This document shows, piece by piece, positions 17,642-33,845 of a stretch of 64,000 nt of DNA. A program made the position numbers and the translations under genes. Position 1 is the first letter of the stretch, and each line of letters opens with the position of its first letter. The stretch comes from Candidatus Hermodarchaeota archaeon (lineage in GTDB: Archaea > Asgardarchaeota > Lokiarchaeia > Sigyniarchaeales > SOKP01), in contig JBHLLP010000005.1 in the NCBI GenBank assembly GCA_048885525.1, forward strand, positions 14,335 to 78,334, given 5' to 3'. Below the pieces are notes generated by a model. The model did not search any database and had not been told where the DNA came from. It worked only from the letters and a program-made list of their open reading frames with translations.

Positions 17642-17730
17642 TGTTAATATTACGAATTGGGTTAAGTTTTAATGAAAAAAAAGATTTATTAAGAGTAATA
17701 GATCAATGAATAAGAATATCTCAAAATTAT

Positions 17731-18396
17731 ATGACAAATTTTAAATCTGTTGTCAGTAAACTACAAAAACACTATCCTGATGCATCGGATGTAGTTATTG
17801 TGAGCAATAACGGTAAAATTCTTTATTCAACAAGTAAATGGGATGTTAAAAATGATATTAATAGTTTTTTAAGTAGCTGGGAAAGTGGTACCGCGCAATT
17901 TGTAACTCTAAATGGGATTAGATATTCAATACTTCAAATGGAGCCTGAACGCTTTATTGGGACTAATCGCCAAAAAAAGGGACATCTTATCGGTGCCGCA
18001 TCTCCAGATGGAGAAAAATATATGGTAGCTCATATTAAACCAAAAGCAAAAGGCTGGTTCCATATGGCTTATCCTGCTGTAGCAAGAGCCGCAGCTATGT
18101 TGAAAAAAGGCATAAAATCTGAATTTATTGGATCTAAAATTGATTTATCTAGTGAAACTAAGCAAGAGAGCGTGTACGAGAGCTCATCAAGGCAAACTGT
18201 AGCCTACCAACCTGCTCCAACTGAACCTACAATTGATCCTTATCTTAAAGCAGAAGTTGAAGGCTTTTTACAATGGATAAATAACCCATCAGGATTAGCT
18301 GGTTATATTTCTTATGTTTTACAACAAAACGACCAATATCGAATTTCTAGACTTGCTGAACTTTATAATGAATTATATCACTTATTTTTTGATTAG
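17731..18396 (+). CDS. Asgard (Loki-type) profilin with a C-terminal extension of about 90 aa
   Basis: The first ~125 aa match the Loki profilin pattern (VVIVSNNGKILYSTSKWD, LNGIRYSI, PERFIGTN, KGHLIG); followed by a S/E/P-rich linker and a helical domain. Confidence 0.75.
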   Translation: MTNFKSVVSKLQKHYPDASDVVIVSNNGKILYSTSKWDVKNDINSFLSSWESGTAQFVTLNGIRYSILQMEPERFIGTNRQKKGHLIGAASPDGEKYMVAHIKPKAKGWFHMAYPAVARAAAMLKKGIKSEFIGSKIDLSSETKQESVYESSSRQTVAYQPAPTEPTIDPYLKAEVEGFLQWINNPSGLAGYISYVLQQNDQYRISRLAELYNELYHLFFD

Positions 18397-18583
18397 GAGA
18401 TCCCGCTTAATAATCATCTTTTTAATTTAAGTTATATTCTACACTAAAGTTTAAATTCGCTTAGTCAATTAATTTAAACTTTAAATATTCATTACACTGA
18501 AACGATATTCTTAATTGAAACGTTTATTATCTTATATGAATTATAAATAATTAATCTAAAATTCATAACGAATAAGAGAAAAA

Positions 18584-19357
18584 ATGAGTCTACCGTCAAA
18601 AAAAGCTATTCAAGTGGATGAGAATACAGTAGATTATGAGTACAAGATGTTAAATCATGTTATGCAACTAAGATACCACGAAGATAAATGCGTCGAATGT
18701 GGATTTTGTCATCGTGTTTGCCCCGTTACTGTCTCTATTTATGATGAACCTCTAAAAAAGACAGCTATAGGAACCCCAAAAGATATGAAAATTGAATCAA
18801 ACAAAAAAATCGTAGTCGATACTGAAAAATGCGTCTGGTGCGGGTGTTGTACATGGATCTGTCCTGGTTATACATTAGAGCTTTTCATTAATGGTGAGAA
18901 AAAACTAAATGTAGTTGAAAATGGTTCACTTCCCGAATTTGAAGAAGAGGTAAGAACATTAGAGAATGGACAAAAAGTACGTAAGGTTGTAGAAGGGTCT
19001 ATAACAATTAATTGCAATGAGAAGGATACAAAGGTTTTAGATGCTTTTTGTGATGAATGCGCTGTAAGTGCCATGGAAAGAAAGGATAAAGAAATTGAAG
19101 CAGATCGAGATAAATGTATTTTATGCTTTAAATGTACTGAAGCTGCAGATAATTATGATAATATTAGCGTTGAGATTCATCGCGATAGATTTAAAAATAT
19201 AAAAGGAGAACCTTCTTCTGTGTGGAATGGCATCATGTTGAGAGTTCTTGGAAAAGAAGGTAAAATTAAAGGAATTATGAGCCGAAGTCAAAACAAACTT
19301 GCTGATGCCGTGATGCGATTAATGGGAAAAGAATTTAAAGAAGAAGAGGAAGCCTAA
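18584..19357 (+). CDS. 4Fe-4S polyferredoxin (FwdF/FmdF-like)
   Basis: CVECGFCHRVCP and CVWCGCCTWICP, plus degenerate third and fourth clusters (CDECAV, CILCFKC). Confidence 0.75.
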   Translation: MSLPSKKAIQVDENTVDYEYKMLNHVMQLRYHEDKCVECGFCHRVCPVTVSIYDEPLKKTAIGTPKDMKIESNKKIVVDTEKCVWCGCCTWICPGYTLELFINGEKKLNVVENGSLPEFEEEVRTLENGQKVRKVVEGSITINCNEKDTKVLDAFCDECAVSAMERKDKEIEADRDKCILCFKCTEAADNYDNISVEIHRDRFKNIKGEPSSVWNGIMLRVLGKEGKIKGIMSRSQNKLADAVMRLMGKEFKEEEEA

Positions 19358-19383
19358 ATCTCCACTTTTTTATATTATTTTTA

Positions 19384-20280
19384 TTATTTACTCCCTAGTA
19401 TTTTTTGTTTGTATAATTTATTCTGGTCGAATGCTTGTATAATATCATTCATACGATTTTTAATATTTCTCTTATACATTAGATCTGTATGGGATAATAT
19501 ATAAAATGCATCATCTTTTATTGCTTGAAATATAATCTCACCTGCTTGATTGGGTGAAAGACCCGCTTCAAACATTCGACGAAGCATTTCGAACGTTTTT
19601 TTAGATTCTGGATAGTTCTTAATCACTTTTTCTGTAGCAGACATATAATCTGGACCACGATATTCATCAGGACGATTTCGTTCACAATCCATTATCGTTG
19701 TATTTACAAATGATGGGCAAAAAACAGAAACCTTTATTTTTGAATTTGCTTGTTCAAGCTCCCCTGCTAAAGCTTCAGAGAGAGCAACAACACCATGTTT
19801 TGTAGCAGCATAAATCCCAGTTCCCGTTTCACCTGACATGAGACCAGCAAGAGATGCTGTGTTTACGATATGACACTCATTATCTTGTTTAAGCATGATT
19901 GGGACAAAATTACGAATGCCATGGATTACACCCCAAAAGTTCACATTAATAATCCATTTCCAATCGAGTAGAGAATGTTCCCACATAGGTCCAGGCAAGA
20001 CAACCCCAGCATTATTACATAATAAATTTACTTCACCGAAAGTATCTATTGTTTTTTGCGCTAAATTTTCAACATGTTCCGCTTTTGTAACATCTGTTAA
20101 TACAGATAACACCGCTACTCCCGCTGCTTTTAATTCATCTTCAGCTTTAGATAATGCATCTGCTTCAAGATCGGCAAGTACAATCTTCATCCCTTCCTTT
20201 GCAGCTATGTTAGCAATTCCACGCCCAATACCATTTGCGCCACCAGTGATAACCGCTACTTTATCTTTAAAATCTTTCAT
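19384..20280 (-). CDS. Short-chain dehydrogenase/reductase
   Basis: TGGANGIG, NNAG, catalytic YAATK. Confidence 0.92.
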   Translation of the reverse strand: MKDFKDKVAVITGGANGIGRGIANIAAKEGMKIVLADLEADALSKAEDELKAAGVAVLSVLTDVTKAEHVENLAQKTIDTFGEVNLLCNNAGVVLPGPMWEHSLLDWKWIINVNFWGVIHGIRNFVPIMLKQDNECHIVNTASLAGLMSGETGTGIYAATKHGVVALSEALAGELEQANSKIKVSVFCPSFVNTTIMDCERNRPDEYRGPDYMSATEKVIKNYPESKKTFEMLRRMFEAGLSPNQAGEIIFQAIKDDAFYILSHTDLMYKRNIKNRMNDIIQAFDQNKLYKQKILGSK

Positions 20281-20513
20281 ATATATCTCACTCTAATTTT
20301 TCTTTTTTAAAACCAACATTGGATATTTATAAAAGATAATAAGATTATTTATAACATTTATTAAAAAAAAAGCAAAATTAAATTATTTCACATTTATATC
20401 TCCTTTAAATTTCCTACATATCGTTCTTATATGTGGAAAAATATAAAACTAAAAAATTAAAAAACTATCTACCACATATTTAGATTGTCATTTCTAAATT
20501 AAATATAAAAAAA

Positions 20514-21530
20514 GTGATAATGATGGCAAAAAGAGTCGCAATTAATGGTTTTGGTAGAATCGGTCGATTATTTTTTAGAGCAGTATACGATAATTTCTGG
20601 AATGACATTGATGTTGTTTCAATTAACGATCTGTTTGAACCCAAATATTTAGCATATGCCTTAAAATATGATACCGTCTTTGGAAGATTTAAAGGAAAAG
20701 TAGAATCAACTGAAAATTCATTGATTATCGATGGTAAAAATATACCAATCACTGCTGAGAGAGATCCTGCGAATTTACCACATGCTAATAATAATATTGA
20801 TGTTGCTGCTGAATGTACCGGTCGATTTGTTAATAGAGAAGGAGCTAGCAAACATTTAACTGCTGGCGCAAAAAGAGTCCTAATTAGTGCTCCAGCAACG
20901 GATCCAGATATTACTGTTGTATTGGGATGTAATGATGATAAAATTTCATATGAGCATAAGATTATTTCGAATGCTTCCTGTACAACTAACTGTCTAGCAC
21001 CTGTAGTTAAAGTTCTGCAAGATAATTTCAAAATCAAATACGGTTTAATGACAACTATCCACTCATATACAAATGATCAAACTACAGGAGATATCGCAAG
21101 AGCAGGTAGTCCAGATAAAATGATTCGTGGAAGATCTGCTGCTCAAAATATGATTCCTACATCTACAGGTGCAGCTAAAGCAATTGGATTAGTTTTTCCT
21201 GAATTAAAGGGGAAACTAGATGGTATTGCTGTAAGAGTACCAACAATCGACGGTAGTGTAGTAGATTTAAAAGCTATTCTAGAAACTAGATGTAATGCTG
21301 AAGATATTAATTCTAAAATGAAGGAAGCCTCCAATAACAGTTTAAGGGGTATCTTAGAATATACTGAAGACCCAATTGTAAGTAGTGATATTATAGGGAA
21401 CCCACACAGCTCAATATTCAATAGTCTTTGGACTAAAGTTATTGAGGATCAAGTTTTTGTGTTGAGCTGGTATGATAATGAATGGGGTTTCTCTAACCGA
21501 ATGGCTGAATTGATTATTAAAAGATTATAA
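20514..21530 (+). CDS. gap: Class I (bacterial/eukaryotic-type) glyceraldehyde-3-phosphate dehydrogenase
   Basis: INGFGRIGR, SNASCTTNCLAP, PTSTGAAKA, WYDNEWG. True start is probably ATG 20520 or 20523. Confidence 0.95.
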   Translation: MIMMAKRVAINGFGRIGRLFFRAVYDNFWNDIDVVSINDLFEPKYLAYALKYDTVFGRFKGKVESTENSLIIDGKNIPITAERDPANLPHANNNIDVAAECTGRFVNREGASKHLTAGAKRVLISAPATDPDITVVLGCNDDKISYEHKIISNASCTTNCLAPVVKVLQDNFKIKYGLMTTIHSYTNDQTTGDIARAGSPDKMIRGRSAAQNMIPTSTGAAKAIGLVFPELKGKLDGIAVRVPTIDGSVVDLKAILETRCNAEDINSKMKEASNNSLRGILEYTEDPIVSSDIIGNPHSSIFNSLWTKVIEDQVFVLSWYDNEWGFSNRMAELIIKRL

Positions 21531-21566
21531 ATGTAAAATTTATTCAATCCTTTTTTTATTTTTTTC

Positions 21567-22121
21567 CTATAATATAAGATTTAGAAGTGTAATTATAGTT
21601 ATTAAGAAACTACTTAATAGAATTATAAAAAGATTAGAACTCTGCGTTTTAATTCTTCTTCTTATAAGCATGAATTTAAATCCTACAGCAATGTGTAATA
21701 TTATACAAATTGCTAGAAAGTAATCATAATAGATATGCACTTCAAAAGGAATTACAATTCCTATAGTTCCTTGATACCAATCAAAATATCCTAGACCTGA
21801 TAAAACAACCAAAGCGGCTAAAATGATTATTACTCTATTTGTAATTAGTTGTATCAACCTTAATATGTATATGGGGCGAGCTCTTTCATTTTTTAGCCCT
21901 TTAAAGATTCGAGGAAACCAAAGTTTCAAGTATTTTTGTGAAAGAATGCAGTGGATAATAAGTAATCCCATTAAAGTCCATTCGACAACCATGTGAAGAA
22001 TGGGATAGAAATCATAAATTTCCAGAAATTCATGTGAACTCACTATAGCAAGCACAAATAATGAAAAAACTGCAACTAACCAAGATATATTCCTGTGTAA
22101 TTTTAATCCGTTTATTTTCAT
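21567..22121 (-). CDS. Membrane protein with paired intramembrane His (cytochrome b-like)
   Basis: About 5 TM; His in LHRN, ILHMV, IIHCI, VHIY, ILHIA, arranged as an internal duplication. Confidence 0.55.
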   Translation of the reverse strand: MKINGLKLHRNISWLVAVFSLFVLAIVSSHEFLEIYDFYPILHMVVEWTLMGLLIIHCILSQKYLKLWFPRIFKGLKNERARPIYILRLIQLITNRVIIILAALVVLSGLGYFDWYQGTIGIVIPFEVHIYYDYFLAICIILHIAVGFKFMLIRRRIKTQSSNLFIILLSSFLITIITLLNLIL

Positions 22122-22123
22122 AA

Positions 22124-22786
22124 TTACATTTCCTTTTTCTTAAAATTCAATTGATATACAAACCAATTTCCAAATTGATCATCTAATTCAAAACCAGCTT
22201 CATCTGCCCACTTTTTTTCTGTTTTGCGCCTCGGGTAATCAGGATCAGGAATCATTTCACTTAACGATATTAACCCATTAGGTTTTAAAACTCTTTTAAT
22301 TTCTTTAAGAGCTCGTATAGGTTCTGGAATTTCGGGAAGACAAGCAATCATTAGAATACGATCAATGCTTTCATCTTCAAACGAGAGATTATACACATCT
22401 TCTATTTTAGGGATAATATTAATAATATTCTCTTTTTCTATTCTTTTTTTTAACCTATTTATTACTGATTCTTGGATATCTATAGCAAACACTTTTCCTT
22501 TCGGTAAAACATTTTTTGCGATTGCTTTTGTATAGCTCCCTTTTCCTGGTCCAATTTCAACTACTATCATACCAGATTCGAGATTCATCCTTTCAGCTAT
22601 CTTTTTAGGTTTTTGTATAAATTTCCTTCTAATAGGATTGTCTATTAGAAGTGTCATAAAACCAGGGATCGGAAATTTATGATATCTTCGAATTATTCTT
22701 AATATGATAAATACAATAAAGAATAAAGTTCCCAGGATTATAAGAAATGTCAAAAAAATGATTCTTAAGATAAGCCAAATATCCAT
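22124..22786 (-). CDS. Class I SAM-dependent methyltransferase with N-terminal TM anchor
   Basis: VVEIGPGKG, AIDIQ, FEDESID, RVLKPNG. Confidence 0.88.
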   Translation of the reverse strand: MDIWLILRIIFLTFLIILGTLFFIVFIILRIIRRYHKFPIPGFMTLLIDNPIRRKFIQKPKKIAERMNLESGMIVVEIGPGKGSYTKAIAKNVLPKGKVFAIDIQESVINRLKKRIEKENIINIIPKIEDVYNLSFEDESIDRILMIACLPEIPEPIRALKEIKRVLKPNGLISLSEMIPDPDYPRRKTEKKWADEAGFELDDQFGNWFVYQLNFKKKEM

Positions 22787-22877
22787 TGATATTAAACTCT
22801 TGAAATTCTACGAAGTTTGTTTAATTAACTAAATAAAAGAATAATCCTTTTAAAGTTCTTTAAATAATAAAATAACC

Positions 22878-23807
22878 ATGGATCTTAGCACGGGAAAACC
22901 AATTGAATTATCAGATAAAAGTCTATTCGATGAATATTTTAGCAAATATCCCCCAGAAAGTTCTGAATTTACATTTACTAACTTGTTTATGTGGAGGAAT
23001 TATTATAATTTCTTATTTATGGAATTTGAGGGGCATTTAATCCTACATTCTAAAGATTATTTAAGAAACAGAAAAAAACCGATTAATGCAGACTCTAATA
23101 ATTATATTTACTTCTTTCCTCCAATAGGTCTTTATCCAGAAAAAATCATTATTAAATTATTTGAAAATTTTGAGAATATAGAAATACATAGGGTTCCAGA
23201 AGAAATATGTGAAAAATTAGCTCAAAATGAGAATTTTACTAAATTAAATTTAGGTTGCATTGAAGATAGGAATAATTGGGATTATGTATATAACAAAGAA
23301 GAAATTCTCAATTTAGCTGGAAACAAGTATAGGCAAAATCGAAGGTGGTTACAAAAATTCCTAACCAATTACAATCACGATTTTAAGTTAATAACGGAAA
23401 AAGATATTGAAAAGTGTAAAGAACTTCAATTGGAATGGTGTATAATGAGAGCTTGCACTGAAGATGAGAGTTTAGAGGCTGAACAAGCGGCGATTTATGA
23501 AGCCTTGAACAATTTTAACGCTCTAAAATTTAAGGGGGGAATACTATGTGTTGATGATAAATGTGCTGCTTATACTTTTGGTGAAATGTTAAATACTAAA
23601 ACTTTAGTAATTCATATTGAAAAGGCTCACATGGAATATGAAGGATCCTATCAAGCCATCAATAACTTCTTCTTAAAAAACTGTTGTGTAGATGCTATAT
23701 GTGTTAATCGGGAACAAGATTTAGGGATAGAGGGCTTAAGAAGGGCAAAAGAGTCGTATAAGCCAATTAAAATGAATAAAAAAAGTATTGTCTATAAAAT
23801 AGTGTAA
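22878..23807 (+). CDS. DUF2156-family protein (aminoacyl-transferase / LPG synthase C-terminal-like)
   Basis: SEFTFTNLFMW, DYVY, IHIEKA, NREQDLGIEGLRRAKESY. Confidence 0.82.
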   Translation: MDLSTGKPIELSDKSLFDEYFSKYPPESSEFTFTNLFMWRNYYNFLFMEFEGHLILHSKDYLRNRKKPINADSNNYIYFFPPIGLYPEKIIIKLFENFENIEIHRVPEEICEKLAQNENFTKLNLGCIEDRNNWDYVYNKEEILNLAGNKYRQNRRWLQKFLTNYNHDFKLITEKDIEKCKELQLEWCIMRACTEDESLEAEQAAIYEALNNFNALKFKGGILCVDDKCAAYTFGEMLNTKTLVIHIEKAHMEYEGSYQAINNFFLKNCCVDAICVNREQDLGIEGLRRAKESYKPIKMNKKSIVYKIV

Positions 23808-23812
23808 TTTAG

Positions 23813-24622
23813 TTATTGTTTATCTCTAATTTTTTCCTTTTTAAAAGCATATAAAGCTTTTAACGGTAAGGTTGTAAGAAATGCTATATATTCGCGTTCC
23901 TTTACTTCAGGATCGTTATTTTGTGCTGTTAATAATTCAATATTCTTTTTAACAAAATCTAGCTCTGCTTTCTTATATTGCTCATAATATTTTTCACTGA
24001 AATAGCTATAACCAATAGAAGGTGCCAATTTCGATTCAAAGCTAAAATATTTGTCATATATTTTTTTTGCATTTGGGAGATCATCAAGGTGTAATTCAAA
24101 ACTATTTAATAATGGCTTTAATAAGTCTAATAGTTTTTTAAAACTATGAATTGCAACTCTACAAAGATCTATTTCTTTTCTGTAGAATTCAACTAATTTT
24201 TTTGGATCTGCTGGTGATTCGTGACTAATCGGACTATATTCAAGTACTTGTAGTACTTTTTTATTTAGTTGATATAATTTTGGAGGGATTTTTCCTTTTT
24301 GATGCTTCTCAGCTTTTCGTGAAATAATCATACCGTCTTCTTCCATACTTTTAAGATGTCTAGCTACTGTAGATTTACTTTGTTCAACCATGTGACTAAT
24401 TTGGGTTATATTCAATTCACCAAATACTGATAAAATGCTCATAAGATCAAATCGTATATTATATTTACCCAATAGATGAAACCAGTTTTCAATTGTTTTG
24501 ATTTCTTTATCATTCAATTTTACTTCAATTTTTTCTCCATTTGGTAAGGTTATAGTGAATTTTTGTTCCTTATCCACTTTCAGCTTTTCCGGTACAATTT
24601 CACGGAATTCTTCTTTAGACAT
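23813..24622 (-). CDS. ArsR-like winged-helix transcriptional regulator (module 1)
   Basis: IRFDLMSIL...ELNITQISHMVEQSKSTVARHLKSMEEDGMI. Confidence 0.85.
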   Translation of the reverse strand: MSKEEFREIVPEKLKVDKEQKFTITLPNGEKIEVKLNDKEIKTIENWFHLLGKYNIRFDLMSILSVFGELNITQISHMVEQSKSTVARHLKSMEEDGMIISRKAEKHQKGKIPPKLYQLNKKVLQVLEYSPISHESPADPKKLVEFYRKEIDLCRVAIHSFKKLLDLLKPLLNSFELHLDDLPNAKKIYDKYFSFESKLAPSIGYSYFSEKYYEQYKKAELDFVKKNIELLTAQNNDPEVKEREYIAFLTTLPLKALYAFKKEKIRDKQ

Positions 24623-24802
24623 TTTTTAAATCATCACTCTAAAATTCATTAATTTTTTTCATATCGTGTTAGTTTCAGTTTTTTTCTTTAATAATAATAT
24701 AGCGTATTATTTTTTTAATTTTTTGGTTTGACAGTCCGTTTCATAAATTTATACATTTTAGTATTTGAGATTGTTTTTTCTCGATTTAATAGTTCTATTC
24801 AA

Positions 24803-24833
24803 TATCATACCAATGATAAGATTTAAATATGAA
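24803..24833 (+). promoter_or_regulatory. Module 1 operator plus TATA core
   Basis: TATCAT-ACCA-ATGATA (24803-24818), 2 nt, then ATTTAAATATGAA (24821-24833). Confidence 0.6.
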
Positions 24834-24889
24834 ACGTCCCAATATTATAATGCCATATTGAAAATTAATTTAAAAATAAAAAATAAGAT

Positions 24890-25597
24890 TTGATGAAAAA
24901 AATATTTGAGGTGAAAATGATAGTGAAAAAGAAATCAAATGTGACTAAAGGACTGATCGTCGCAACACTTTTAATAACGATCATTACACTTCTTACAACA
25001 GTGAACGCTTGTGCCTCTAATCGCGTCTATTTCATGGCAATAGGAGATGATCTAGATCTCGCTAGAACTAATAATTTTATCATAGGTAATATTAAACTCG
25101 GTGAAGACGGTGAGCCTGAATCGGCAGGAGTATTTTTCTATTCAAAAATCTATGATGAATCAGGTCAATATGCAATGATAGGAATGACCACAAATGGGAT
25201 TCTGGTAACCGACCAATTAACATTTTATTGCCCAGTCTTTAGTGTCTGGTTCACTAATGTGTGGGCTTTCGTGGGTGAGGGATTGTTTAGAACTACTGAT
25301 ACCAATATCGACTTAGTTTTTCGAAGAACATTTCCAATAACCATGCCAAATACCGAAGGTCAATGGGTCCCAGCTTCCATTTTTATATGGCTAAGCCCTA
25401 CAGGTGAATATTATGAAGGTGATCCCGAAGATCCCAATTATCCCCCTCAACCGATAGGCGAAGTTCAAATTATGGAACCAGGATGGGCCCTTGCTGGGGT
25501 TTTTTGGAATGTTAGCATCCCAATGGATGTGGGGTTTGGATTAGGTATATTACCGATCGGTCCGATATCCTATTTGACATCATACATAGAAATATGA
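24890..25597 (+). CDS. Secreted protein of unknown function (module 1)
   Basis: Basic N-terminus, hydrophobic helix and TTVNA cleavage-like site; acidic, aromatic- and Gly/Pro-rich mature part. Start is probably 24917 or 24923, after GAGGTG. Confidence 0.75.
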   Translation: MMKKIFEVKMIVKKKSNVTKGLIVATLLITIITLLTTVNACASNRVYFMAIGDDLDLARTNNFIIGNIKLGEDGEPESAGVFFYSKIYDESGQYAMIGMTTNGILVTDQLTFYCPVFSVWFTNVWAFVGEGLFRTTDTNIDLVFRRTFPITMPNTEGQWVPASIFIWLSPTGEYYEGDPEDPNYPPQPIGEVQIMEPGWALAGVFWNVSIPMDVGFGLGILPIGPISYLTSYIEI

Positions 25598-25721
25598 GTC
25601 CCATAACGCTAAGTCATTTGTAACAGATAAAAAATATATTCTAAAATCTTTTTTTTTTAAACCGCTTTAACCATCAATTTGATGATAATATCAAAATAAA
25701 AAAAAATGAATTGATAAAAAA

Positions 25722-26111
25722 ATGACCGAAATTAAAAAACTTACAAAAATTGCTCTTATAGTGGATGCTGTTATTTTTATTATATTTGGAACCATGCTTA
25801 TCTTTCTATATGATGCGACGTTGAATACGGAGGGTTGGACAAATCCATTATTTCCAAGAGGTTTTGGGGGTCTTATCTATGTCGCTGCTCTTTACGCAGT
25901 TATAATGCTTCGCAAAAAGGAATGGGAAGAGATTAAATTGGCATATTTATTTTTGTTTAGCTTGTGTATACCAGTAATAATTATTGAAGCTACAGTATTA
26001 GGAGTGCTTGGGTCAACTTTTAAGGTTGTAACTGTCTCTCAGATGATCTTCGACTTGATTATGATTAGTGCAAAGGTAGCTCTTGGCTTTGTCGCTTATT
26101 TCCGACAGTGA
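25722..26111 (+). CDS. 4-TM membrane protein (module 1), paralogue of 27359-27763
   Basis: MTEIKKLTKI...KKEWEEIKLAYLF...SQMIFDLIMIS...YFRQ. Confidence 0.8.
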   Translation: MTEIKKLTKIALIVDAVIFIIFGTMLIFLYDATLNTEGWTNPLFPRGFGGLIYVAALYAVIMLRKKEWEEIKLAYLFLFSLCIPVIIIEATVLGVLGSTFKVVTVSQMIFDLIMISAKVALGFVAYFRQ

Positions 26112-26191
26112 GGATAAACGCAAAAAATGAATAATTTTTAAATTAAATTTTTTTTCTTTTTATTTTTTCTATATATATTCAGGAACTAATG

Positions 26192-26893
26192 CTATTTTTT
26201 ATTGATAAATTTTTTTAACTCCATTTCTTCAAATAGAATTTTAACCGGTATACCCGCGTGAAACCAATAAATGTATTTTTCTTGATTAGGGTTTTCCTTT
26301 TGTTCCTTGATACACTGTTCTTCAAATTCTATAATAAATTTATAAAGTAGTTTCTGCAATCTCTTCCATTGATTCTCAGTAAAAAAGAACCTGCCCCCAA
26401 AAAAATGACTAATATCGAGTTTTGTGTAATTTACCGTTTTATAAATTTCTTTATAAATTTCTACTATATCGTCAGAATCAGTTTCTTCTAGATATTCACA
26501 GAATTTAATACATTTATCTAAAATTCTTCTATTATACAATACTGAAGATTTTGTTGATTTAGCAATTTTTTGAACCAGTTCTTTATTAAACCCATGTGAA
26601 AGATCATAAGCAGCTATTAAGGTTATTTCATCAGCATCAGGAGTTAGAGAATAATAATGGGCTTCTATATTAGCCCGAACATGTTCTTTTTTAGAAATTT
26701 CAACAATTCCAAGCTCGATCAATTTTTGCAAATGAGGATGTATTGTAGATTTTGACTTTCCTAATTTTTTCGCTAGTTCAGTAAAACTTAATTCAGGATA
26801 TACGTTTAATAGACCCCATATTCTAAATCGTATTCCTGTTAAATCTGAAATATCTATTGTTGATTTTATTTCATTCTCTTCCAAATCACCCAC
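26192..26893 (-). CDS. ArsR-like winged-helix transcriptional regulator (module 2)
   Basis: IRFRIWGLL...ELSFTELAKKLGKSKSTIHPHLQKLIELGIV; paralogous to 23813-24622. Confidence 0.85.
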   Translation of the reverse strand: MGDLEENEIKSTIDISDLTGIRFRIWGLLNVYPELSFTELAKKLGKSKSTIHPHLQKLIELGIVEISKKEHVRANIEAHYYSLTPDADEITLIAAYDLSHGFNKELVQKIAKSTKSSVLYNRRILDKCIKFCEYLEETDSDDIVEIYKEIYKTVNYTKLDISHFFGGRFFFTENQWKRLQKLLYKFIIEFEEQCIKEQKENPNQEKYIYWFHAGIPVKILFEEMELKKFINKK

Positions 26894-27152
26894 CTTTAAG
26901 ACAATTTAATGAATCTTAAAAAACAAGTTTTTTCTATTAATTACTTCACTTTATATCTCTTCTTTATTTGTTTTAATAGAATCAATTCAAGTTTATAAGT
27001 ATTATTAATAATACGAATAATAAATAATCGAATATATAAATAATCTTATTATTTTAATATTATATTGTCGGATTATGTCGAATCGATTCATACAAATTCA
27101 TGTTTTTATTATAAATTTATAAAGTGTTTTTTAAAAATTTTGATTTCTATTA

Positions 27153-27183
27153 TTCGAAGTATATCGAAATATTTAAATATGAA
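27153..27183 (+). promoter_or_regulatory. Module 2 operator plus TATA core
   Basis: TTCGA-AGTATA-TCGAA (27153-27168), 2 nt, then ATTTAAATATGAA (27171-27183). Confidence 0.6.
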
Positions 27184-27358
27184 TGTGATCTAATTTATTA
27201 ATAAAGCCGAATAATGAAAGGTTCACTATTCTTTAGTATATAATGGTCTTATAAAAGTATACTAAGATTGGGCGAATCGATTCGGAGAATCTAACAAAAA
27301 TCAAATAACGAAATCTAACGCCAAATTAAAAATAAAAAAAAAGAGTCTATAACAAAAA

Positions 27359-27763
27359 ATGACTGAAATTAAAAAACTTACAAAAATTTCACTTTTAGCA
27401 GTTGGTATCGTTAATATCTTATATGGGCCTATGTTATTATTTCTTCCTAATCTTTTTATAAACCTAGGTGTTATAACTCCTACGACAAATCCTTATATTC
27501 TGAGATTTGGTGGTGCAACTTTATTAGGAATGGCAATTTTCGCATTTGTAATTTTAATCAAAAAGGATTGGGAATGGGAAAAGGTAAAATTGGCATATGC
27601 ATTTCTATATTATCTGTTAATTGCGAACATAATCCTGGAACCTACAAAGCTAGTATTTTCAATACCCACTAATATGATGATTTCTCAGACGATCATGGAT
27701 TTAATCATAATGTCTGTACTTCTTGTTCTTGGTGTTTACTCTTACATCAAACAGAGAGAATAA
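27359..27763 (+). CDS. 4-TM membrane protein (module 2), paralogue of 25722-26111
   Basis: MTEIKKLTKI...KKDWEWEKVKLAYAF...SQTIMDLIIMS...YIKQ. Confidence 0.8.
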   Translation: MTEIKKLTKISLLAVGIVNILYGPMLLFLPNLFINLGVITPTTNPYILRFGGATLLGMAIFAFVILIKKDWEWEKVKLAYAFLYYLLIANIILEPTKLVFSIPTNMMISQTIMDLIIMSVLLVLGVYSYIKQRE

Positions 27764-27820
27764 ATAGAAAAATTAAAAATATAATTAATTAAAAATGATA
27801 AATCAAATCAAAAAGAAGAG

Positions 27821-28330
27821 TTGAGCAAAATTAATAGATCTAAATTAATACCGAAAGTATTAGTAGGTTTAGTTGTTTTAGCAACAATCTTGGGCTTAAC
27901 AACAGCAGCTAGAGCAGGTGTCCCTCCATTCATATGGGTTTACATGTCAGAATACAATCAGATTAGCAGTTTAGAAGGCGATGTAGAAGCTCCTCATGAT
28001 GAGCCATGTTTATGGGGAGTTATGTCTGCTTGTAGTGAAGATGAAATAGGATACTTTCCTCAACATCCCTATGATCATAAATTGTTTATTGATGGAGAAA
28101 AAATAGCTTTACTCAGGTTTGTGTGGATTGATAGGGATGGGTTGTTTGGATATCCAGACCTTAAATGGTGGGTTTATTATCAAGTTTTTGAAGCAGGTTA
28201 TTTTGATGTAGGTTTGCATGAAATTAAGCATGAAATGTGGGTTCAAAAACCTTATTTTGGAAGCGAAATGTATGGATGGAGAATCTTTATAACTCTGACT
28301 TACACTTTAAATATTACTGAAAACGTATAA
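27821..28330 (+). CDS. Secreted protein of unknown function (module 2)
   Basis: Signal peptide MSKINRSKLIPKVLVGLVVLATILGLTTAARA; aromatic-rich, beta-type mature domain. Confidence 0.75.
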   Translation: MSKINRSKLIPKVLVGLVVLATILGLTTAARAGVPPFIWVYMSEYNQISSLEGDVEAPHDEPCLWGVMSACSEDEIGYFPQHPYDHKLFIDGEKIALLRFVWIDRDGLFGYPDLKWWVYYQVFEAGYFDVGLHEIKHEMWVQKPYFGSEMYGWRIFITLTYTLNITENV

Positions 28331-28377
28331 GAAATAATAATGAGGGTGAAGAAGGGCAATTTTAATTTTAAATCAGG

Positions 28378-28470
28378 ATATAGAAAATGGAGGAGTTGGG
28401 TTAGATAAAATACTTCCTAATAAAGCTACTACTAAACCAACAATCCTCCATTCTATATTTCTTTTTTTTA
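28378..28470 (+). terminator. Long imperfect hairpin followed by a T-tract after module 2
   Basis: ATATAGA/TCTATAT, ATGGAGGA/TCCTCCAT and GTTGGGTTAG/CTAAACCAAC pairings, followed by a T run. Confidence 0.5.
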
Positions 28471-28566
28471 TATTTAAAGTTTGATATGTAATCCGAGAAA
28501 AAAATACATAAAAAAATTAATTTTCTAAAATTAAAAAAAGGGAAAAAATTTATGGAATAAAAAGTA

Positions 28567-29085
28567 ATGAAGGGAGAAATTGATAAAAAGTTTGATGAAG
28601 CACTTAAACAATTTGAAGAGATATTTCCTAAACTAGATCCTACTGAAGGTGGCTGTGCGGAAGGCACAATGACAGGTATTTTAAATATACTAGGAATCCA
28701 AGATGGATTAATCAATAACATAATGATTCCTTTATCTGGTGGACTAGGTGGTTATAAGTCTGAAAAAGACTGGTATGGCCCATGTGGGGCGGTAGTTGGA
28801 GGGTGTGCTGCAATAGGAGCAATTTTAGGAGGAAAAGGAAGAGAAAAGATGTCTAATGATTTAATTCCTGTTGCTTATATGAAATCGGCACAATTTGCGA
28901 AAGAATTTGAGAAGGAATTTGGTTCAGTAATTTGCCCAAATTTATCTGGATATGATTTCAGTGAGCCAAATGCATTGACGAAATACATCGAAGATGGTAC
29001 ATGGGGAAAAAAGTGTTATAAGTACGTTCTATGGGCGATCGACAACATAAGAAAATTAATGCAGGAAGAATTAGTAAAATTTTAA
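28567..29085 (+). CDS. C-GCAxxG-C-C family putative redox protein
   Basis: GGCAEG, GPCGAVVGG, FGSVICPNL, KKC. Confidence 0.85.
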   Translation: MKGEIDKKFDEALKQFEEIFPKLDPTEGGCAEGTMTGILNILGIQDGLINNIMIPLSGGLGGYKSEKDWYGPCGAVVGGCAAIGAILGGKGREKMSNDLIPVAYMKSAQFAKEFEKEFGSVICPNLSGYDFSEPNALTKYIEDGTWGKKCYKYVLWAIDNIRKLMQEELVKF

Positions 29086-29271
29086 TAATAAATACTAATT
29101 TTTTTTTTTAATTTCTTGAATATTTTTAGTAATTTGGTAAATCTACTTAAGATATTTAATTATCAAGGAATTAAGAATTAGAAATCAAATTTTAATAAGA
29201 ATTAAAAATTGAAATCGCTTAGATTTATATTTTTAAAATTTCTAAGATCATTATAACTTATATTAATTTAT

Positions 29272-30939
29272 GTGGTATTAATGACAGAAGAAGGTTCACT
29301 AGAAGAAAAACCAGTAGGTAGATTAACTGGAAAAACGACAACACATACAGTAACAGCGGTGTTTGAGGTTCCTTCAGTTGAAAGAAATAATTATTTAGTG
29401 GTTTATGGGGAAAAAGATAAAGAAGGAAGAAGATTATATTATGTGCTCTACATTATTGAAATGTGGACCGATGAGAAGGGGCGTCAAGCAAAATTAGGAG
29501 TCCTGGGAGAAAGACCGACAAAACCTTTTGAAATTGGAGCAGATATCTTCATGGCAAAACAAGAACAAATTTCAAAAATTTTAGGAATCTTCAACCCACC
29601 AGGCGAATCCCTCTCATTAGGAAAACTTATAGGTTATCCATATGAAGTGTATCTATTAATTAAAAATTTTGGCAGAATTTTCATTACTGGAAAATCTGGT
29701 TCCGGTAAATCTTATACTATGGGAGTTTTATGCGAGGAATTTCTTAAAAAGGGTATTCCTGTTGTCATTTTAGACAGACATGGGGAATATGGAAGTCTTA
29801 AGGTAGCTGGTGAGGATTTACCGGAAGGAGAGAGTGAATTTGTCGATAAGATAGTAGAATTTTCTGATTTGAAGAAGAATAAGGGTGGTGATGTCGATAT
29901 TGAATATTTATTTTCATTAAAACCCTTGGATATTGTTGCTCCAAATTTATGTACTGTTGTAAATCTAAATGGTCTGGCTTTAGAAGTTCAGGAAGCTATA
30001 GCAGGTAAATTACTAAAAAAATTATATGATGCAAGTACAACAAGAAGTATACCTCCTTTCTACTTGTTTTTAGATGAGGCTCATTTATTTGCTGGAAAGA
30101 AACAAACAGAAACATGTGAAGTAGTTAAATTATTTGCACAGGAAGGTAGAAAATTTGGTGCTAATATTGTTATAGGCACACAACGTCCTCAATTATTAGA
30201 TACTACCATCAGAGCTCAAGCTGGTACTTGGGTAGTTCATAATTTATCAGATATAAGAGATATCGGAATTACAATTTCAAGTGCGGAAGATTTAAGTAAT
30301 GAAAATAAATCAGATATTTCAGGGTTAGATAAAGGACAGGCAATAGTCTGTGGAGAAGCTGTTAAAGGGATTCCTTTATTTGTTAAAATAAGATCACGAC
30401 GAACCAAGCATGGTGGAGTTAGTTTTAATCCTTTAGATTTTCTTTCAGAAAGCACTGTAGAAGAGTTACAAAAAAGAAAGGAGAGACTTTTAGGAGGGAA
30501 ATCCGCTGATGAATTAGAAACTGGAAAGTCAATGTTTGAAGAAATGTTGGAACCAAAAAAAGCAGCCGATTATTTGGATGAAATTGCTGCGTTAAAAGTC
30601 AGAATTCAGGAATTGGAAGATGAAGTTAATCGATTAAAACAAAAAGTAGCTGATGTGAAAGAAGGAAAAGAAATTCCGCTTATTGCTACTGATGAAACTA
30701 TAGAAGAATTACAAACCGAAATAAATGTATGGAAGGAGAAATATAACTTTTTAAAAGAAATGGCAGAAAAAGGTGGAGAAGATATGGTCCCCTTAGATGA
30801 AGGCAGCGAAATGGTATTAGATTTGAATAATAGAATAATAGAATTAGATGCTCAAGTTAAAAAATATAAATCAAAGTATGATGATGCAATAATTTTAGCT
30901 GAAAAATCAATAGCTGAACTGAAAAAGCGAAAAAAGTAA
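29272..30939 (+). CDS. HerA/FtsK-superfamily ATPase (DUF87) with N-terminal barrel and C-terminal coiled coil
   Basis: Walker A GKSGSGKS, LDRHGEY, Walker B LFLDEAH, EGRKFG, TQRP; heptad-rich last ~130 aa. Confidence 0.88.
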   Translation: MVLMTEEGSLEEKPVGRLTGKTTTHTVTAVFEVPSVERNNYLVVYGEKDKEGRRLYYVLYIIEMWTDEKGRQAKLGVLGERPTKPFEIGADIFMAKQEQISKILGIFNPPGESLSLGKLIGYPYEVYLLIKNFGRIFITGKSGSGKSYTMGVLCEEFLKKGIPVVILDRHGEYGSLKVAGEDLPEGESEFVDKIVEFSDLKKNKGGDVDIEYLFSLKPLDIVAPNLCTVVNLNGLALEVQEAIAGKLLKKLYDASTTRSIPPFYLFLDEAHLFAGKKQTETCEVVKLFAQEGRKFGANIVIGTQRPQLLDTTIRAQAGTWVVHNLSDIRDIGITISSAEDLSNENKSDISGLDKGQAIVCGEAVKGIPLFVKIRSRRTKHGGVSFNPLDFLSESTVEELQKRKERLLGGKSADELETGKSMFEEMLEPKKAADYLDEIAALKVRIQELEDEVNRLKQKVADVKEGKEIPLIATDETIEELQTEINVWKEKYNFLKEMAEKGGEDMVPLDEGSEMVLDLNNRIIELDAQVKKYKSKYDDAIILAEKSIAELKKRKK

Positions 30940-31096
30940 TTTATTTTATAATCTTTTTTGTTAATTCTCGTAGATCATTTTCTCTAAGGAAATTGGTTAT
31001 TTTAGTTAATTTTTTTTAATTTTCTTAAACTATTTATGTGAATTATTAATTGCATAATTATTATTATAGTAGAATTTTACCAGGAGTAGTATTATA

Positions 31097-31264
31097 GTGA
31101 ATATTGAAAGTATTAAAGAGTTACAACAAAAATTATCATCTTTACTTGGTGTATCTGTTCCATGTAGATATATCCACTCACCAAATTCCTTATTAAAACT
31201 TGAGGATATTTATAAGACTATTCAGCTGATTGAAGCTTTTATACGAAATCCTGCTAATGTATAA
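31097..31264 (+). pseudogene. Internally deleted M42 (TET) aminopeptidase remnant, 55 aa in frame
   Basis: GTG after AGGAG: MNIESIKELQQKLSSLLGVS|VPCRYIHSPNSLLKLEDIYKTIQLIEAFIRNPANV*, i.e. an M42 N-terminal helix joined to the M42 C-terminal RYIHSP motif. Confidence 0.75.
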
Positions 31265-32722
31265 TTATTCCTCAAAGAATAATTCTTCTTCTGAAATTTC
31301 AGGGCTTATAACTGGTTTATGGATAAATTTTTCATTCAGCTTAATTCTTTTGAGAAAAAATAAACTAAATAAGTAAAAAATTCCCATTGAAGCTAATGTA
31401 AGTGTAATAATTGTAGAATTTTCTGCATTATGCCCAGTAAGAATTAATCCTATTACGAAAGAAGCCAGCGATTGGCCCGCTGCCATAATGAAAGAGCTTA
31501 AACCGAAATAAGCTCCAGATATGTTTGACACAGCTTCATGAAAATCAGGTTTTTTAGCCCTATCAGCTGCTTCATAAACTAAAACGCTCGCTAAAGGAGG
31601 ATTAAATAATCCTAATCCATACATAGAACCTAATATAGTACCCATAGTTAATATAAATAAAATAATTTCAAATCCAGTAGATAACACTTTAATCAAGAAA
31701 AACAATTCTAAAAAACACGCAATAATCGAAGATAATATACAAACCATATATGTTTTAAGTATTGAATTCTTTTTAAGCAGTCTTCGCCAGATATAGAAAC
31801 CAATCATCTTACTTATTACCGAGACTACAACATAAATATAAAATTTACTTGCGGTAAACAGGAGTGTATAAGTGAGAAAAGGAATTACTATAATTCCTAA
31901 TATTTTCCCGGATATACTGTTAAAAAGTATTACACTTAGATACTTTCTGTATTTTTTATCCCATAATGGAGCTCGCATTTGGCTGACAAAAGACTTTAAG
32001 CTGGTTTTACTTCTACTTTTTTCTACTTTGGTAGTTTTATGAAAGCTTTCATCAACAGAAAAAAAGGTTATTATAATAGTGATTAAACCAAAAATTGTGA
32101 ATGCAATTCCAATCCATGGCATAAATGTAAGAATTATTGTTCCAGAATATTCCCACCATTTTACATTTTCTGGTTCTGGTAATAAGCTCTCTACCATTAA
32201 AGGAAGCATTAGTGCTAAAACTGATGCAATTATGTGAAAAAATGTAGTAACTGCCGCGATTTTTTCTCTATTTTTATGAGTTTGTGATTGTTCTGTCAAC
32301 ATGGAAAGATGGACAGTCATAATCGATGAACTACTGATAGATTTAATAATTAACGTACTCCACAGAAATATTGCTGTAGGCATAAATAAGGCATTATTTT
32401 GAGGGCATCTCGGAGGTAACCAAACGATAATACTAGTTAAAATCCATATTGGTAACCCATATAAAAGAAAAGGTTTACGTTTTCCAAGTTTAGTCGGTTT
32501 TTTATTGTCAGCGACTATTCCAAAAATGATAGAAGAAATTGCGGAGACTATGAGTTGTATGGAAATCCCAACAGATGTCAGAATTGAATCCAGATTAATC
32601 GTATAAACATAAAATTGAAAGATAAATGTGCCTACAAACATATTGGACATAATCATGCCGAAGTTGCCTATGGCATATCCAATAAGTCGCTTTCCATGTA
32701 ACTCACGTTGAACCTCAACCAT
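31265..32722 (-). CDS. MFS transporter, GPH/MelB-like sugar:cation symporter
   Basis: IGYAIGNFG, FGIVADNKKPTKLGKRKPFLL, SGAYFG; about 12 TM. Confidence 0.85.
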   Translation of the reverse strand: MVEVQRELHGKRLIGYAIGNFGMIMSNMFVGTFIFQFYVYTINLDSILTSVGISIQLIVSAISSIIFGIVADNKKPTKLGKRKPFLLYGLPIWILTSIIVWLPPRCPQNNALFMPTAIFLWSTLIIKSISSSSIMTVHLSMLTEQSQTHKNREKIAAVTTFFHIIASVLALMLPLMVESLLPEPENVKWWEYSGTIILTFMPWIGIAFTIFGLITIIITFFSVDESFHKTTKVEKSRSKTSLKSFVSQMRAPLWDKKYRKYLSVILFNSISGKILGIIVIPFLTYTLLFTASKFYIYVVVSVISKMIGFYIWRRLLKKNSILKTYMVCILSSIIACFLELFFLIKVLSTGFEIILFILTMGTILGSMYGLGLFNPPLASVLVYEAADRAKKPDFHEAVSNISGAYFGLSSFIMAAGQSLASFVIGLILTGHNAENSTIITLTLASMGIFYLFSLFFLKRIKLNEKFIHKPVISPEISEEELFFEE

Positions 32723-32811
32723 GATATTATAATTAATATATAAAAGATTAAGTTTTCGATTTTAAAAGGAGAAGAGTCATATTTGTCAAGAAATAAGTTT
32801 AAAAAAATATT

Positions 32812-33693
32812 TTATTTATCTGTTTTTTCCTTTTTCCTCTTTTCAACTTTCTTTTGTTGTTCTACAATTACATTACTAATAAATTGGGTAGTAGAATATG
32901 CCGATTCCGCTTCGCCGAGACTTAACCCTTCTAATTCTTCCATTTCAGCTTCATCCTCACTGAATCCCATTTCTTTCATGGCATATTCCTTAGCACTCAT
33001 TTTATGTCTTTTAGTTCTTAATTCAGCTCTCTGTAAATAATAATGGCTGGTCATATGAAGAACAGTTCCATCACCATGATCAAATGTAATAACTATTGGA
33101 GGTTCACCATATTTTTCTTGCATTTCTTTACTTACGATTAAAAGTTTAACTCGAGTTTTATCTAATATTTGAATTGGATACGAAGAACTCTCTAACCACC
33201 AAATTGGATCAGCTTTTTCATCAAATAATCCTTCTAAAAACTTGTTGCTTTTGTCTAATACTTCTACTTTAACACAATCATCTGCGGTTGGTCTCTGATT
33301 GTATTTTAAATAAAGGGGAAATATTTTTTCAAGAATATTTAGCAGAACCCAATCAGTAGTAAAGAGAAATCCTCCTTTCTTGACAAATTCTTTTATTTTT
33401 GTTAAAGCATCATCGTTTACATTTCCAGGACAATTAATAATTAAGATTTGATCTGATCTTAATTCAATTTGACTCACTTCATGAGGTTGAATTAAAATAT
33501 ATGGAACTTTTATCAGATCTAATACCAACTCAATTTTATCATAAGACCCAGCAACTATTATTATTGATGATTCTTTCACTTTTCTCAATATATCGAGATC
33601 CATTGGTCGTTCTTTTGCCATTCTTCTTTCTAATATCTTGGAGGAAGCTTTATAAGCTTGTTCCATCTTTTTAAAATCTCCCATTTGAATCAC
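32812..33693 (-). CDS. Hypothetical protein with class I glutamine amidotransferase-like fold
   Basis: ILIINCPG...IKEFVKKGGFLFTTDW and GDGTVLHMTSH resemble a GATase1-like domain; charged helical termini. Confidence 0.6.
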   Translation of the reverse strand: MIQMGDFKKMEQAYKASSKILERRMAKERPMDLDILRKVKESSIIIVAGSYDKIELVLDLIKVPYILIQPHEVSQIELRSDQILIINCPGNVNDDALTKIKEFVKKGGFLFTTDWVLLNILEKIFPLYLKYNQRPTADDCVKVEVLDKSNKFLEGLFDEKADPIWWLESSSYPIQILDKTRVKLLIVSKEMQEKYGEPPIVITFDHGDGTVLHMTSHYYLQRAELRTKRHKMSAKEYAMKEMGFSEDEAEMEELEGLSLGEAESAYSTTQFISNVIVEQQKKVEKRKKEKTDK

Positions 33694-33845
33694 ATTTTAA
33701 TATTTCTTTTAAAAAATTATGACAATTGATATCTTTAAACTTTTTCTAGATTTTATCTATACCAAAAAAATTAATAATTAATAAATTATAAAATCAAATA
33801 ATTTAACCATTAAAATTTGGTACAAACAATTAGGATTTAACAAAA

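Follow-up and report, generated by a model that had tools for sequence, protein, structure and literature searches.

Two adjacent modules of ArsR-like regulator, four-transmembrane protein and exported protein at a variable locus of an Asgard archaeal genome

Positions 23813-28330 of a 64 kb window (the whole stretch of DNA analyzed here), taken from a 3.58-Mb Asgard metagenome-assembled genome (MAG; G000), hold two adjacent gene modules, each with a winged helix-turn-helix (wHTH) regulator (R1, R2), a four-transmembrane (4-TM) protein (M1, M2) and an exported protein (S1, S2). Several known systems resemble parts of this arrangement. Archaeal ArsR/SmtB-like regulators with a C-terminal extension, in particular PH1932 (1ULY), PF0095 (2QUF/2QLZ) and the NCBIfam family MsvR, share the ArsR-type winged helix with R1 and R2, and both groups lie divergent from the genes that they control or would control, with repeated sites at or near the TATA box. 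However, the likeness of R1 and R2 to these regulators is limited to the wHTH (28-32 bits for MsvR, whose cut-off is 220), the window's regulators have no conserved Cys pair or metal site, and their C-terminal domain is private. A second system is a Lokiarchaeal regulon marked by a promoter-operator-leader cassette next to double-wHTH/tetratricopeptide repeat (TPR) regulators and Ras-like GTPases, for which no publication was found; the cassette is shared by most M genes of the genus, including a third copy (M3) elsewhere in G000, and M1 keeps a part of its leader, whereas the window's modules use the ArsR-like R1 and R2 and other repeats.

Bacteriocin/archaeocin-immunity and polymorphic toxin cassettes likewise combine a small multi-pass protein, a leader-bearing exported protein, a regulator and a patchy distribution; in contrast, the window's S proteins lack a toxin domain, are conserved and show no cognate co-variation with M, and both partners frequently stand alone. 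The Pfam family DUF4345 (PF14248; four TM segments, about 120 aa) is similar to M in size and TM count, and it is the only Pfam family that matches M recurrently, with M2 residues 8-120 aligning to profile positions 2-114 of 119; however, the match to M2 is sub-threshold (18.6 bits, gathering 26.5), and no M copy of G000 reaches the gathering score. Small secreted proteins of the PliC/MliC, YceI and chagasin/ICP types share only their fold class with the S1 barrel and the S2 immunoglobulin (Ig)-like domain. Fold scores at background level, together with the absence of a sequence or motif match in S1 and S2, mean that no function can be transferred from them. No description of M, the S families or their neighborhood was found in the literature on DUF4345 and on Asgard GTPase neighborhoods.

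The explanation that we tentatively prefer, at somewhat less than even confidence, is that the locus consists of two adjacent, locally regulated and shuffled envelope operons at a variable spot, where M is a generic membrane adaptor and not one half of a toxin-immunity pair. All six open reading frames (ORFs) of a sequence-only reading of this DNA are present at their coordinates and on their strands. In the first module, R1 (23813-24622, minus strand; 269 aa), an ArsR-type winged-helix regulator, is divergent to S1 and M1 across a control region (24623-24889) with two copies of a candidate operator motif. S1 (24890-25597, plus strand; 235 aa) encodes an exported protein with a predicted signal peptide and a modeled 8-stranded beta-barrel, and is followed by a spacer (25598-25721) with a T-run and then a family-wide M leader; M1 (25722-26111, plus strand; 129 aa) is a 4-TM protein of the MTEIKKLTKI family. 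In the second module, R2 (26192-26893, minus strand; 233 aa), a paralogue of R1 with an ArsR-type wHTH and the same C-terminal domain, is divergent to M2 and S2 across a 465-bp control region (26894-27358) that carries a promoter core and a palindrome. M2 (27359-27763, plus strand; 134 aa) is a 4-TM protein of M1's family, and S2 (27821-28330, plus strand; 169 aa) has a TTG start, a predicted signal peptide ending in ARAG and a modeled Ig-like beta-sandwich. As read from the sequence earlier, the order of the cargo genes is swapped, being S1-M1 in one module and M2-S2 in the other.

The earlier assignment of a divergent ArsR-like regulator to each module is borne out. The Pfam HTH_5/ArsR model scores 32.5 bits for R1, whose wHTH spans residues 57-100, and 32.0 bits for R2 (cut-off of 22); R2 also matches Pfam HTH_IclR with 32.8 bits. 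The two wHTH domains are 34% identical (E 4e-9) and contain the pattern IRF..L..EL..SKST..HL, and homology extends over the full length of the proteins (24% identity over residues 9-222, E 5.6e-6), including a shared C-terminal Q..(D/N)P..(E/K)...LP.K motif. Moreover, both proteins align end to end with further paralogues. The C-terminal portion of R1 is a helical domain of ~150 aa. The nearest solved chains to R1 are PF0095, CzrA and ArsR, with the alignment confined to the wHTH, and R2 matches PH1932 (1ULY) in the PDB with E 5.2e-7. Searches of Pfam, NCBIfam and PADLOC returned only generic wHTH matches, including a Csa3/CasR-type HTH judged unspecific; the C-terminal domain is private to one Lokiarchaeial regulator family. 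A metal site, be it the Cys-rich alpha3 site of the ELCVCD type or an alpha5 site, was not found in R1 or R2, the wHTH and its surroundings are free of Cys, and the NCBIfam metalloregulator models reach 24-28 bits, below their cut-off of 55. A redox switch in R2 was rejected, as the G007 orthologue does not keep the only Cys pair of R2 (CIKFC). Four other genomes (L063, L056, L057 and L075) carry an R1 orthologue at the corresponding position, and for R2 one orthologue was found, in G007 (L063; 79% identity).

Both control regions contain rare repeats that we infer to be operators. In the R1/S1 spacer, a TATA-like TTTAAATA (24822-24829) is directly followed by ATGAAACGTCC (24829-24839, plus strand), and an inverted copy, ATGAAACGGAC (24734-24744, minus strand), stands behind a TATA-like TATAAATTT and faces R1. 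The 64 kb window contains precisely two copies of the motif, ATGAAACGKMC, both in this spacer, compared to an expectation of 0.06, and each of them is kept in three other species (L063, L056 and L057). In the R2/M2 spacer, the promoter core ATTTAAATATGAA (27171-27183), which is also present ahead of S1, is accompanied by two copies of a perfect palindrome, CGAATCGATTC(G), at 27079-27089 and 27273-27284; it is found at no other place in the 64 kb (0.03 expected), and orthologous spacers keep it as well. This spacer is 82% identical to the R2 spacer of G007 until ~20-40 nt before the start codon, and the gene behind it differs, encoding in G007 a 263-aa membrane protein instead of M2. In two other genomes, G003 and G034, the R1 promoter lies directly ahead of M without S1, indicating that M is the constant cargo of this promoter and S1 an optional one.

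Upstream of M1, the S1-M1 spacer contains an inverted repeat, ATCA..TGAT (about 25671-25686), an A-rich tract and GAATTGAT ahead of the ATG; its analysis also yielded the direct-repeat families D1 and D2. The M1 leader can be aligned with 20 other M leaders, and 18-20 of these 21 sequences retain the 6-bp inverted repeat, with one compensatory change. M genes in their usual context (described below) are preceded by a ~170-nt cassette composed of GGAACTATC repeats, a TATA box (CAATTATAAAG), an ATCATC-N5-GATGAT inverted repeat and an GAGTTGAT leader, which is present ahead of most M genes of the genus. M3 of G000 carries the full cassette, M1 retains its distal part (the inverted repeat and the leader), and M2 retains just the last ~35 nt of the leader; the GGAACTATC repeats were searched for in the 64 kb window and not found. 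Rfam gave no match to the long spacers. The same GAGTTGAT leader precedes both M3 and an S3-like gene on contig C50 of G000, whose exported product has no M beside it and which is faced by an R-family paralogue (L014:276-2107). As a separate observation, the extended GAGTTGAT element precedes 7 genes in G000, including M3 and the C50 gene; it is unusual there, because a core Shine-Dalgarno match at <=25 nt from the start was seen for just 222 of the 3310 ORFs (7%).

M1 and M2 are paralogues (42% identity, E 9e-26), and four hydrophobic segments are found across the M family. The motifs said to unite them hold in part: both proteins begin with MTEIKKLTKI and contain SQ.I.DLI, whereas KK[ED]W..[IV]KLAY is exact in M1 and is broken in M2 by two extra residues (KKDWEWEKVKLAY). 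G000 encodes four close copies, namely M1, M2, M3 (contig C33) and M4 (C78), plus about three or four distant ones. A single-protein search finds M in the same genus only, in 21 of 36 genomes, and a profile search extends the range to 103 of 151 genomes of the class (Lokiarchaeia), covering 13 of 29 genera. The nearest relative of M1 is a gene of G031 (L053_6143, 84% identity) in a long-regulator context and not the syntenic gene of G007, which speaks for an exchange of cassettes among loci. Further, the M2 orthologues in G006, G007 and G008 (74-82% identity) lie in a TPR/GTPase context and do not adjoin R2. No member of the M family bears a name; M has no match above the cut-off in Pfam and none in NCBIfam or PADLOC, a sequence search of the PDB with its profile gave nothing at E up to 10, and in the ESM Atlas it falls into unnamed clusters only. 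The statement that this is not a described family therefore stands, as no Pfam, NCBIfam or PADLOC family and no literature description was found for M or S.

Conservation within M, calculated by region as 1 minus the normalized entropy, is 0.96 in the N-tail, 0.77 in the C-tail and about 0.8-0.99 in the KK.WE..KL loop, as compared to 0.51-0.53 in TM3 and loop 3. Conservation thus peaks in the N-tail MTEIKKLTKI, the KK(E/D)WE..KL loop after TM2 (KKEWEEIKL) and the C-tail YIKQR, and a further conserved motif, WTNP..PR.FGG, lies in the predicted outer loop 1. Because the N-tail, loop 2 and C-tail are rich in K and R, the positive-inside rule predicts that they lie on the cytoplasmic side. Synonymous sites vary in the first ten codons across 40 paralogues, showing that selection acts on the peptide, and a nucleotide-level cause for the shared codons (gene conversion or an RNA element) was rejected. 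In G000, directly after the intact M4 on C78 and overlapping the next gene, there is a 60-aa M1-like fragment (L012:5910-6092, plus strand; E 3.8e-13) that looks like the stranded remnant of a replaced M gene.

By sequence comparison, the exported proteins belong to three conserved families, S1, S2 and S3. The S1 family has more than 120 clusters, all labeled Asgard, with identities of 36-100%, and the S2 family has 19 clusters with identities of 53-100%; these values hold over the full length of the homologues, and hypervariability was not seen. S3 comprises 27 divergent representative clusters with RPIEDW...WPVE motifs. S1 and S2 are single-copy in G000, where S3 has one close copy in addition to the S3-like gene on C50. 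The likely true start of S1 is the ATG at 24917, behind GAGGTGA, and the long form of S2 with its TTG start is supported by an N-terminus conserved in 18 homologues. Of the claim that S1 and S2 have similar signal peptides and unrelated mature sequences, the second part is upheld, as BLAST finds no similarity between them; the likeness of their leaders is weakly true. In particular, a profile comparison of S1 and S2 aligns the N-terminal leader alone, and weakly (55.8% probability, E 1.1e-4), the leaders of S2 and S3 are strongly similar (E 1.4e-9 over 40 columns), and the S1-S3 profile alignment continues into the mature sequence at 15% identity. Homology between the mature parts of S1, S2 and S3 is not detectable by profile comparison. 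A leader profile built from S2 and S3 retrieves, out of the 3310 ORFs, only S3, S2 and the C50 protein (E up to 3e-9), together with S1 (E 0.01). The S proteins have no membrane anchor beyond the signal peptide.

The AlphaFold2 model of S1 is an 8-stranded up-and-down barrel (predicted local distance difference test, pLDDT, 85.7; predicted template modeling score, pTM, 0.75). VIA aligns it with OmpA (Z 9.6), NspA (Z 8.8) and the PliC/PhiA barrels (Z 7.7-7.9), the best of which is close to the tool's stated background, and Foldseek returned nothing significant. The S2 model is an Ig-like sandwich (pLDDT 71.6) with generic Ig-like matches in VIA (Z up to 6.4). Foldseek pairs it with the chagasin-family inhibitor ICP2 (EhICP2) at E 2e-4, but with TM scores of 0.35/0.48 and a root-mean-square deviation of 7.5; in VIA the chagasin family (I42) reaches a Z of 6.0, tied with many Ig domains, and there is no Pfam match to it. 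S1, S2 and S3 have no match in Pfam, NCBIfam or PADLOC, and S3 falls only into unnamed clusters of the ESM Atlas. Of 81 genomes of the taxonomic family, 16 were found to have S1 and 11 to have S2-like genes. One genome, G017 (C22), contains a 328-residue open frame (L105:937-1920, minus strand) with an N-terminal signal sequence in which S1-like and S2-like domains are fused (S1-like HMM positions 2-132, i-E 3.7e-12; S2-like HMM positions 52-141, i-E 7.5e-18), which is a Rosetta-stone link between the two families. The fusion, together with a 738-aa ORF that has two tandem S2-like repeats (G099:C12; L120/L121), indicates that S proteins are modular exported domains. In G011, the S1 and S2 genes are adjacent.

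The surroundings of M were surveyed within ±5 kb in 22 genomes, where ORFs were called and clustered and 43 full-length M genes were counted. The usual layout has a divergent ~640-aa protein with two winged helices and TPRs, then M, optionally with S1 ahead of it and an S gene behind it, one or two ~650-aa TPR proteins and a Ras-family GTPase. Of the 43 M genes, 26 have a wHTH gene upstream and divergent at a distance of up to 3 genes, compared to a base rate of 1.7% (which counts regulators of these families whatever their strand or side); a ~650-aa TPR gene lies within 3 genes of 23 (base rate of 3%) and a GTPase gene within 4 genes of 11 (base rate of 10%). A same-strand S gene is within 3 genes of 21 of the 43, and directly adjacent to 12; since ~3% of G000 ORFs are signal-peptide-like, the association of M and S is beyond chance. 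The proposed co-occurrence of regulator, 4-TM protein and exported protein is accordingly recurrent and yet far from general, as both a wHTH and an S gene are near 18 M genes and neither is near 14.

The M3 locus (C33), like most M loci of the genus, has the double-wHTH/TPR regulator and a Ras-like GTPase, and R1 and R2 have no significant similarity to this regulator. The short R1-type regulator stands in for the long one at five M loci, and R2 does so only in the window and in G007. The sequence-only reading missed these usual partners because they lie outside the window; none of the ~650-aa TPR, ~640-aa wHTH-TPR or Ras-like GTPase genes is among the genes mapped at positions 17001-35000. 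As side observations, G000 encodes about 25 of the ~650-aa TPR proteins and about 55 Ras-family GTPases, and the TPR proteins (L011:2479-4437 and paralogues) have a C-terminal region of ~130 aa without a Pfam assignment. Other members of the M family have other neighbors. M4 and its orthologues lie between kbl-like and PK_C-like genes, and a distant clade (MVEITK...; L069, L070, L076 and L077 in G013, G014 and G017) is always 3' of a ~355-aa N-anchored beta-lactamase-family protein (Pfam PF00144, E 2.6e-27), which is a second and different fixed partnership of the 4-TM family.

The type of the adjacent S protein does not follow the phylogeny of M. When mapped on a maximum-likelihood tree built from the 43 M proteins, it needs 18 changes, and shuffled data need 19.2 on average; different S families stand beside sister M proteins whose separating branches measure 0.04-0.09, and the M genes associated with R1 are likewise scattered. 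About half of the S1 genes have no M within 1.5 kb, and M adjoins just 2 of ~15 S2-like genes, most of which also have no M within 1.5 kb. However, at 11 of ~22 S1 loci, in two genera, M follows S1, always 110-125 nt downstream and with a conserved spacer. The locus itself is a variable hot spot whose content is swapped between species, because the gene order reads R1-S1-M1-R2-M2-S2-GCAxxG in G000, R1-S1-M-R2-X263 in G007 (X263 encoding the 263-aa protein, with five TM segments) and GCAxxG-R1-M in G003, where GCAxxG is the putative redox protein described below. Overall, the M and S genes are part of a wider set of cassette genes that have been shuffled.

If the locus consists of shuffled envelope operons with M as a generic adaptor, R1 and R2 would bind the repeats specific to their own module (ATGAAACG or CGAATCGATTCG) and control their own gene as well as the cargo genes, with S and M presumably co-transcribed. 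M would probably not be a cognate partner of S but dock a common cytoplasmic partner, which is favored because its conservation lies in the parts predicted to be cytoplasmic; the S proteins would be co-regulated exported domains of a binding type, and M and S together may remodel or report on the cell envelope. Several observations weigh against this explanation. M genes are tied to dedicated regulators and TPR proteins 18- to 35-fold over the base rate and to GTPase genes about 2.5-fold, but these enrichments are overstated, as the base rates come from one genome and the compared genomes are close kin. The 14 M genes with neither neighbor, and distant members in unrelated contexts (kbl, beta-lactamase-like and other membrane genes), indicate that the M family is not bound to this module. 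M is equally conserved whichever regulator type adjoins it, and therefore nothing ties it to the regulators themselves. Further, the predicted topology of M is derived wholly from hydropathy and charge, and its conserved N-tail could be a mere insertion or translation signal.

An alternative, unlikely on balance though far from remote, is that the genes are co-regulated but functionally independent, the module being a regulon and hot-spot effect only. The random distribution of S types on the M tree, the solo occurrence of about half of the M genes and of half or more of the S genes, the leader common to M3 and the M-less S3-like gene, and the differing content of the locus in G000, G007 and G003 are all consistent with independence; the fixed S1-then-M arrangement and the frequency of M beside S, far above the base rate, argue for more than shared regulation. 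A stronger version of the adaptor explanation, which we consider improbable, would make M the docking subunit of an undescribed Asgard signaling module, whose outer side would consist of exported barrel and Ig-like proteins and whose inner side of TPR proteins, Ras-like GTPases and wHTH(-TPR) regulators; M would link the two through its invariant tails and loop predicted to be cytoplasmic. If it were true, M would be a prokaryotic membrane platform for small-GTPase signaling, and the window would show that platform re-wired to ArsR-like regulators. In a cultured strain, these GTPase genes are rarely in operons with their known regulators (PMC10933270), and a lineage-wide small membrane protein such as M could give a handle on Asgard GTPase signaling. 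Similarly low in probability is a role of M as a surface anchor or receptor that binds S through outer loop 1 and signals inward to TPR/GTPase or wHTH proteins. S proteins have no anchor of their own after the signal peptide, loop 1 has the conserved WTNP/PR.FGG motif, and M co-occurs with ~650-aa TPR and GTPase genes, but the outer loops are short, one M type accompanies three unrelated S folds, and an M gene is missing from the vicinity of most S2-like genes.

Efflux genes are often under the control of ArsR-type regulators, and at L013:4704-6770 (G000:C12) an R2-like paralogue faces an 11-TM transporter-like gene; M could accordingly be a small DUF4345-like transporter or channel subunit whose ligand is sensed by the regulator, with S as an extracellular binding protein. 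DUF4345 also matches 7 of 35 M proteins below threshold (E up to 1, best 1.1e-5) and over nearly the whole profile, which points the same way. We nevertheless regard this as very unlikely, as neither R1 nor R2 has the ELCVCD-type metal site known from sensing ArsR/SmtB proteins, DUF4345 itself has no known function, and few polar residues are conserved within the TM segments of M. The reading proposed from the sequence, a toxin (archaeocin)-immunity, pheromone-receptor or kin-recognition cassette in which S is a polymorphic effector and M its cognate protector or receptor, keeps in its favor the bacteriocin-locus-like layout of small multi-TM protein, leader-bearing exported protein and regulator, and the patchy distribution of the S genes. 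Its central claim is not supported by the comparative data: the S families are conserved and not hypervariable, M and S show no co-phylogeny, S1 is often without M and M without S, the S folds are a generic barrel and an Ig-like domain, and Pfam, NCBIfam and PADLOC contain no toxin, immunity or defense family that matches M or S. We therefore give it very little probability, and a tempting but unsupported interpretation is removed. The locally regulated, shuffled envelope operons that we prefer leave four uncharacterized families (M, S1, S2 and S3), one regulator family and candidate operators defined.

The locus is flanked by an LPG_synthase_C-like gene on one side and a HerA-like ATPase on the other, and homologues are labeled Promethearchaeota, Lokiarchaeota or other Asgard. 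On the same strand and 3' of S2, positions 28567-29085 (plus strand) encode a putative redox protein of the C_GCAxxG_C_C family (Pfam, 47.6 bits), which is possibly a further cargo of the S2-side module. The family has 2 copies in the whole of G000 and lies within or beside M clusters in three genomes, at differing positions (the window, L048:4991-5512 and L057:1288-1836). Further along the window, a 55-aa ORF (31097-31264) has a start that resembles a 359-aa peptidase-like gene located after HerA in G003 (L057:5416-6495), and is far shorter.

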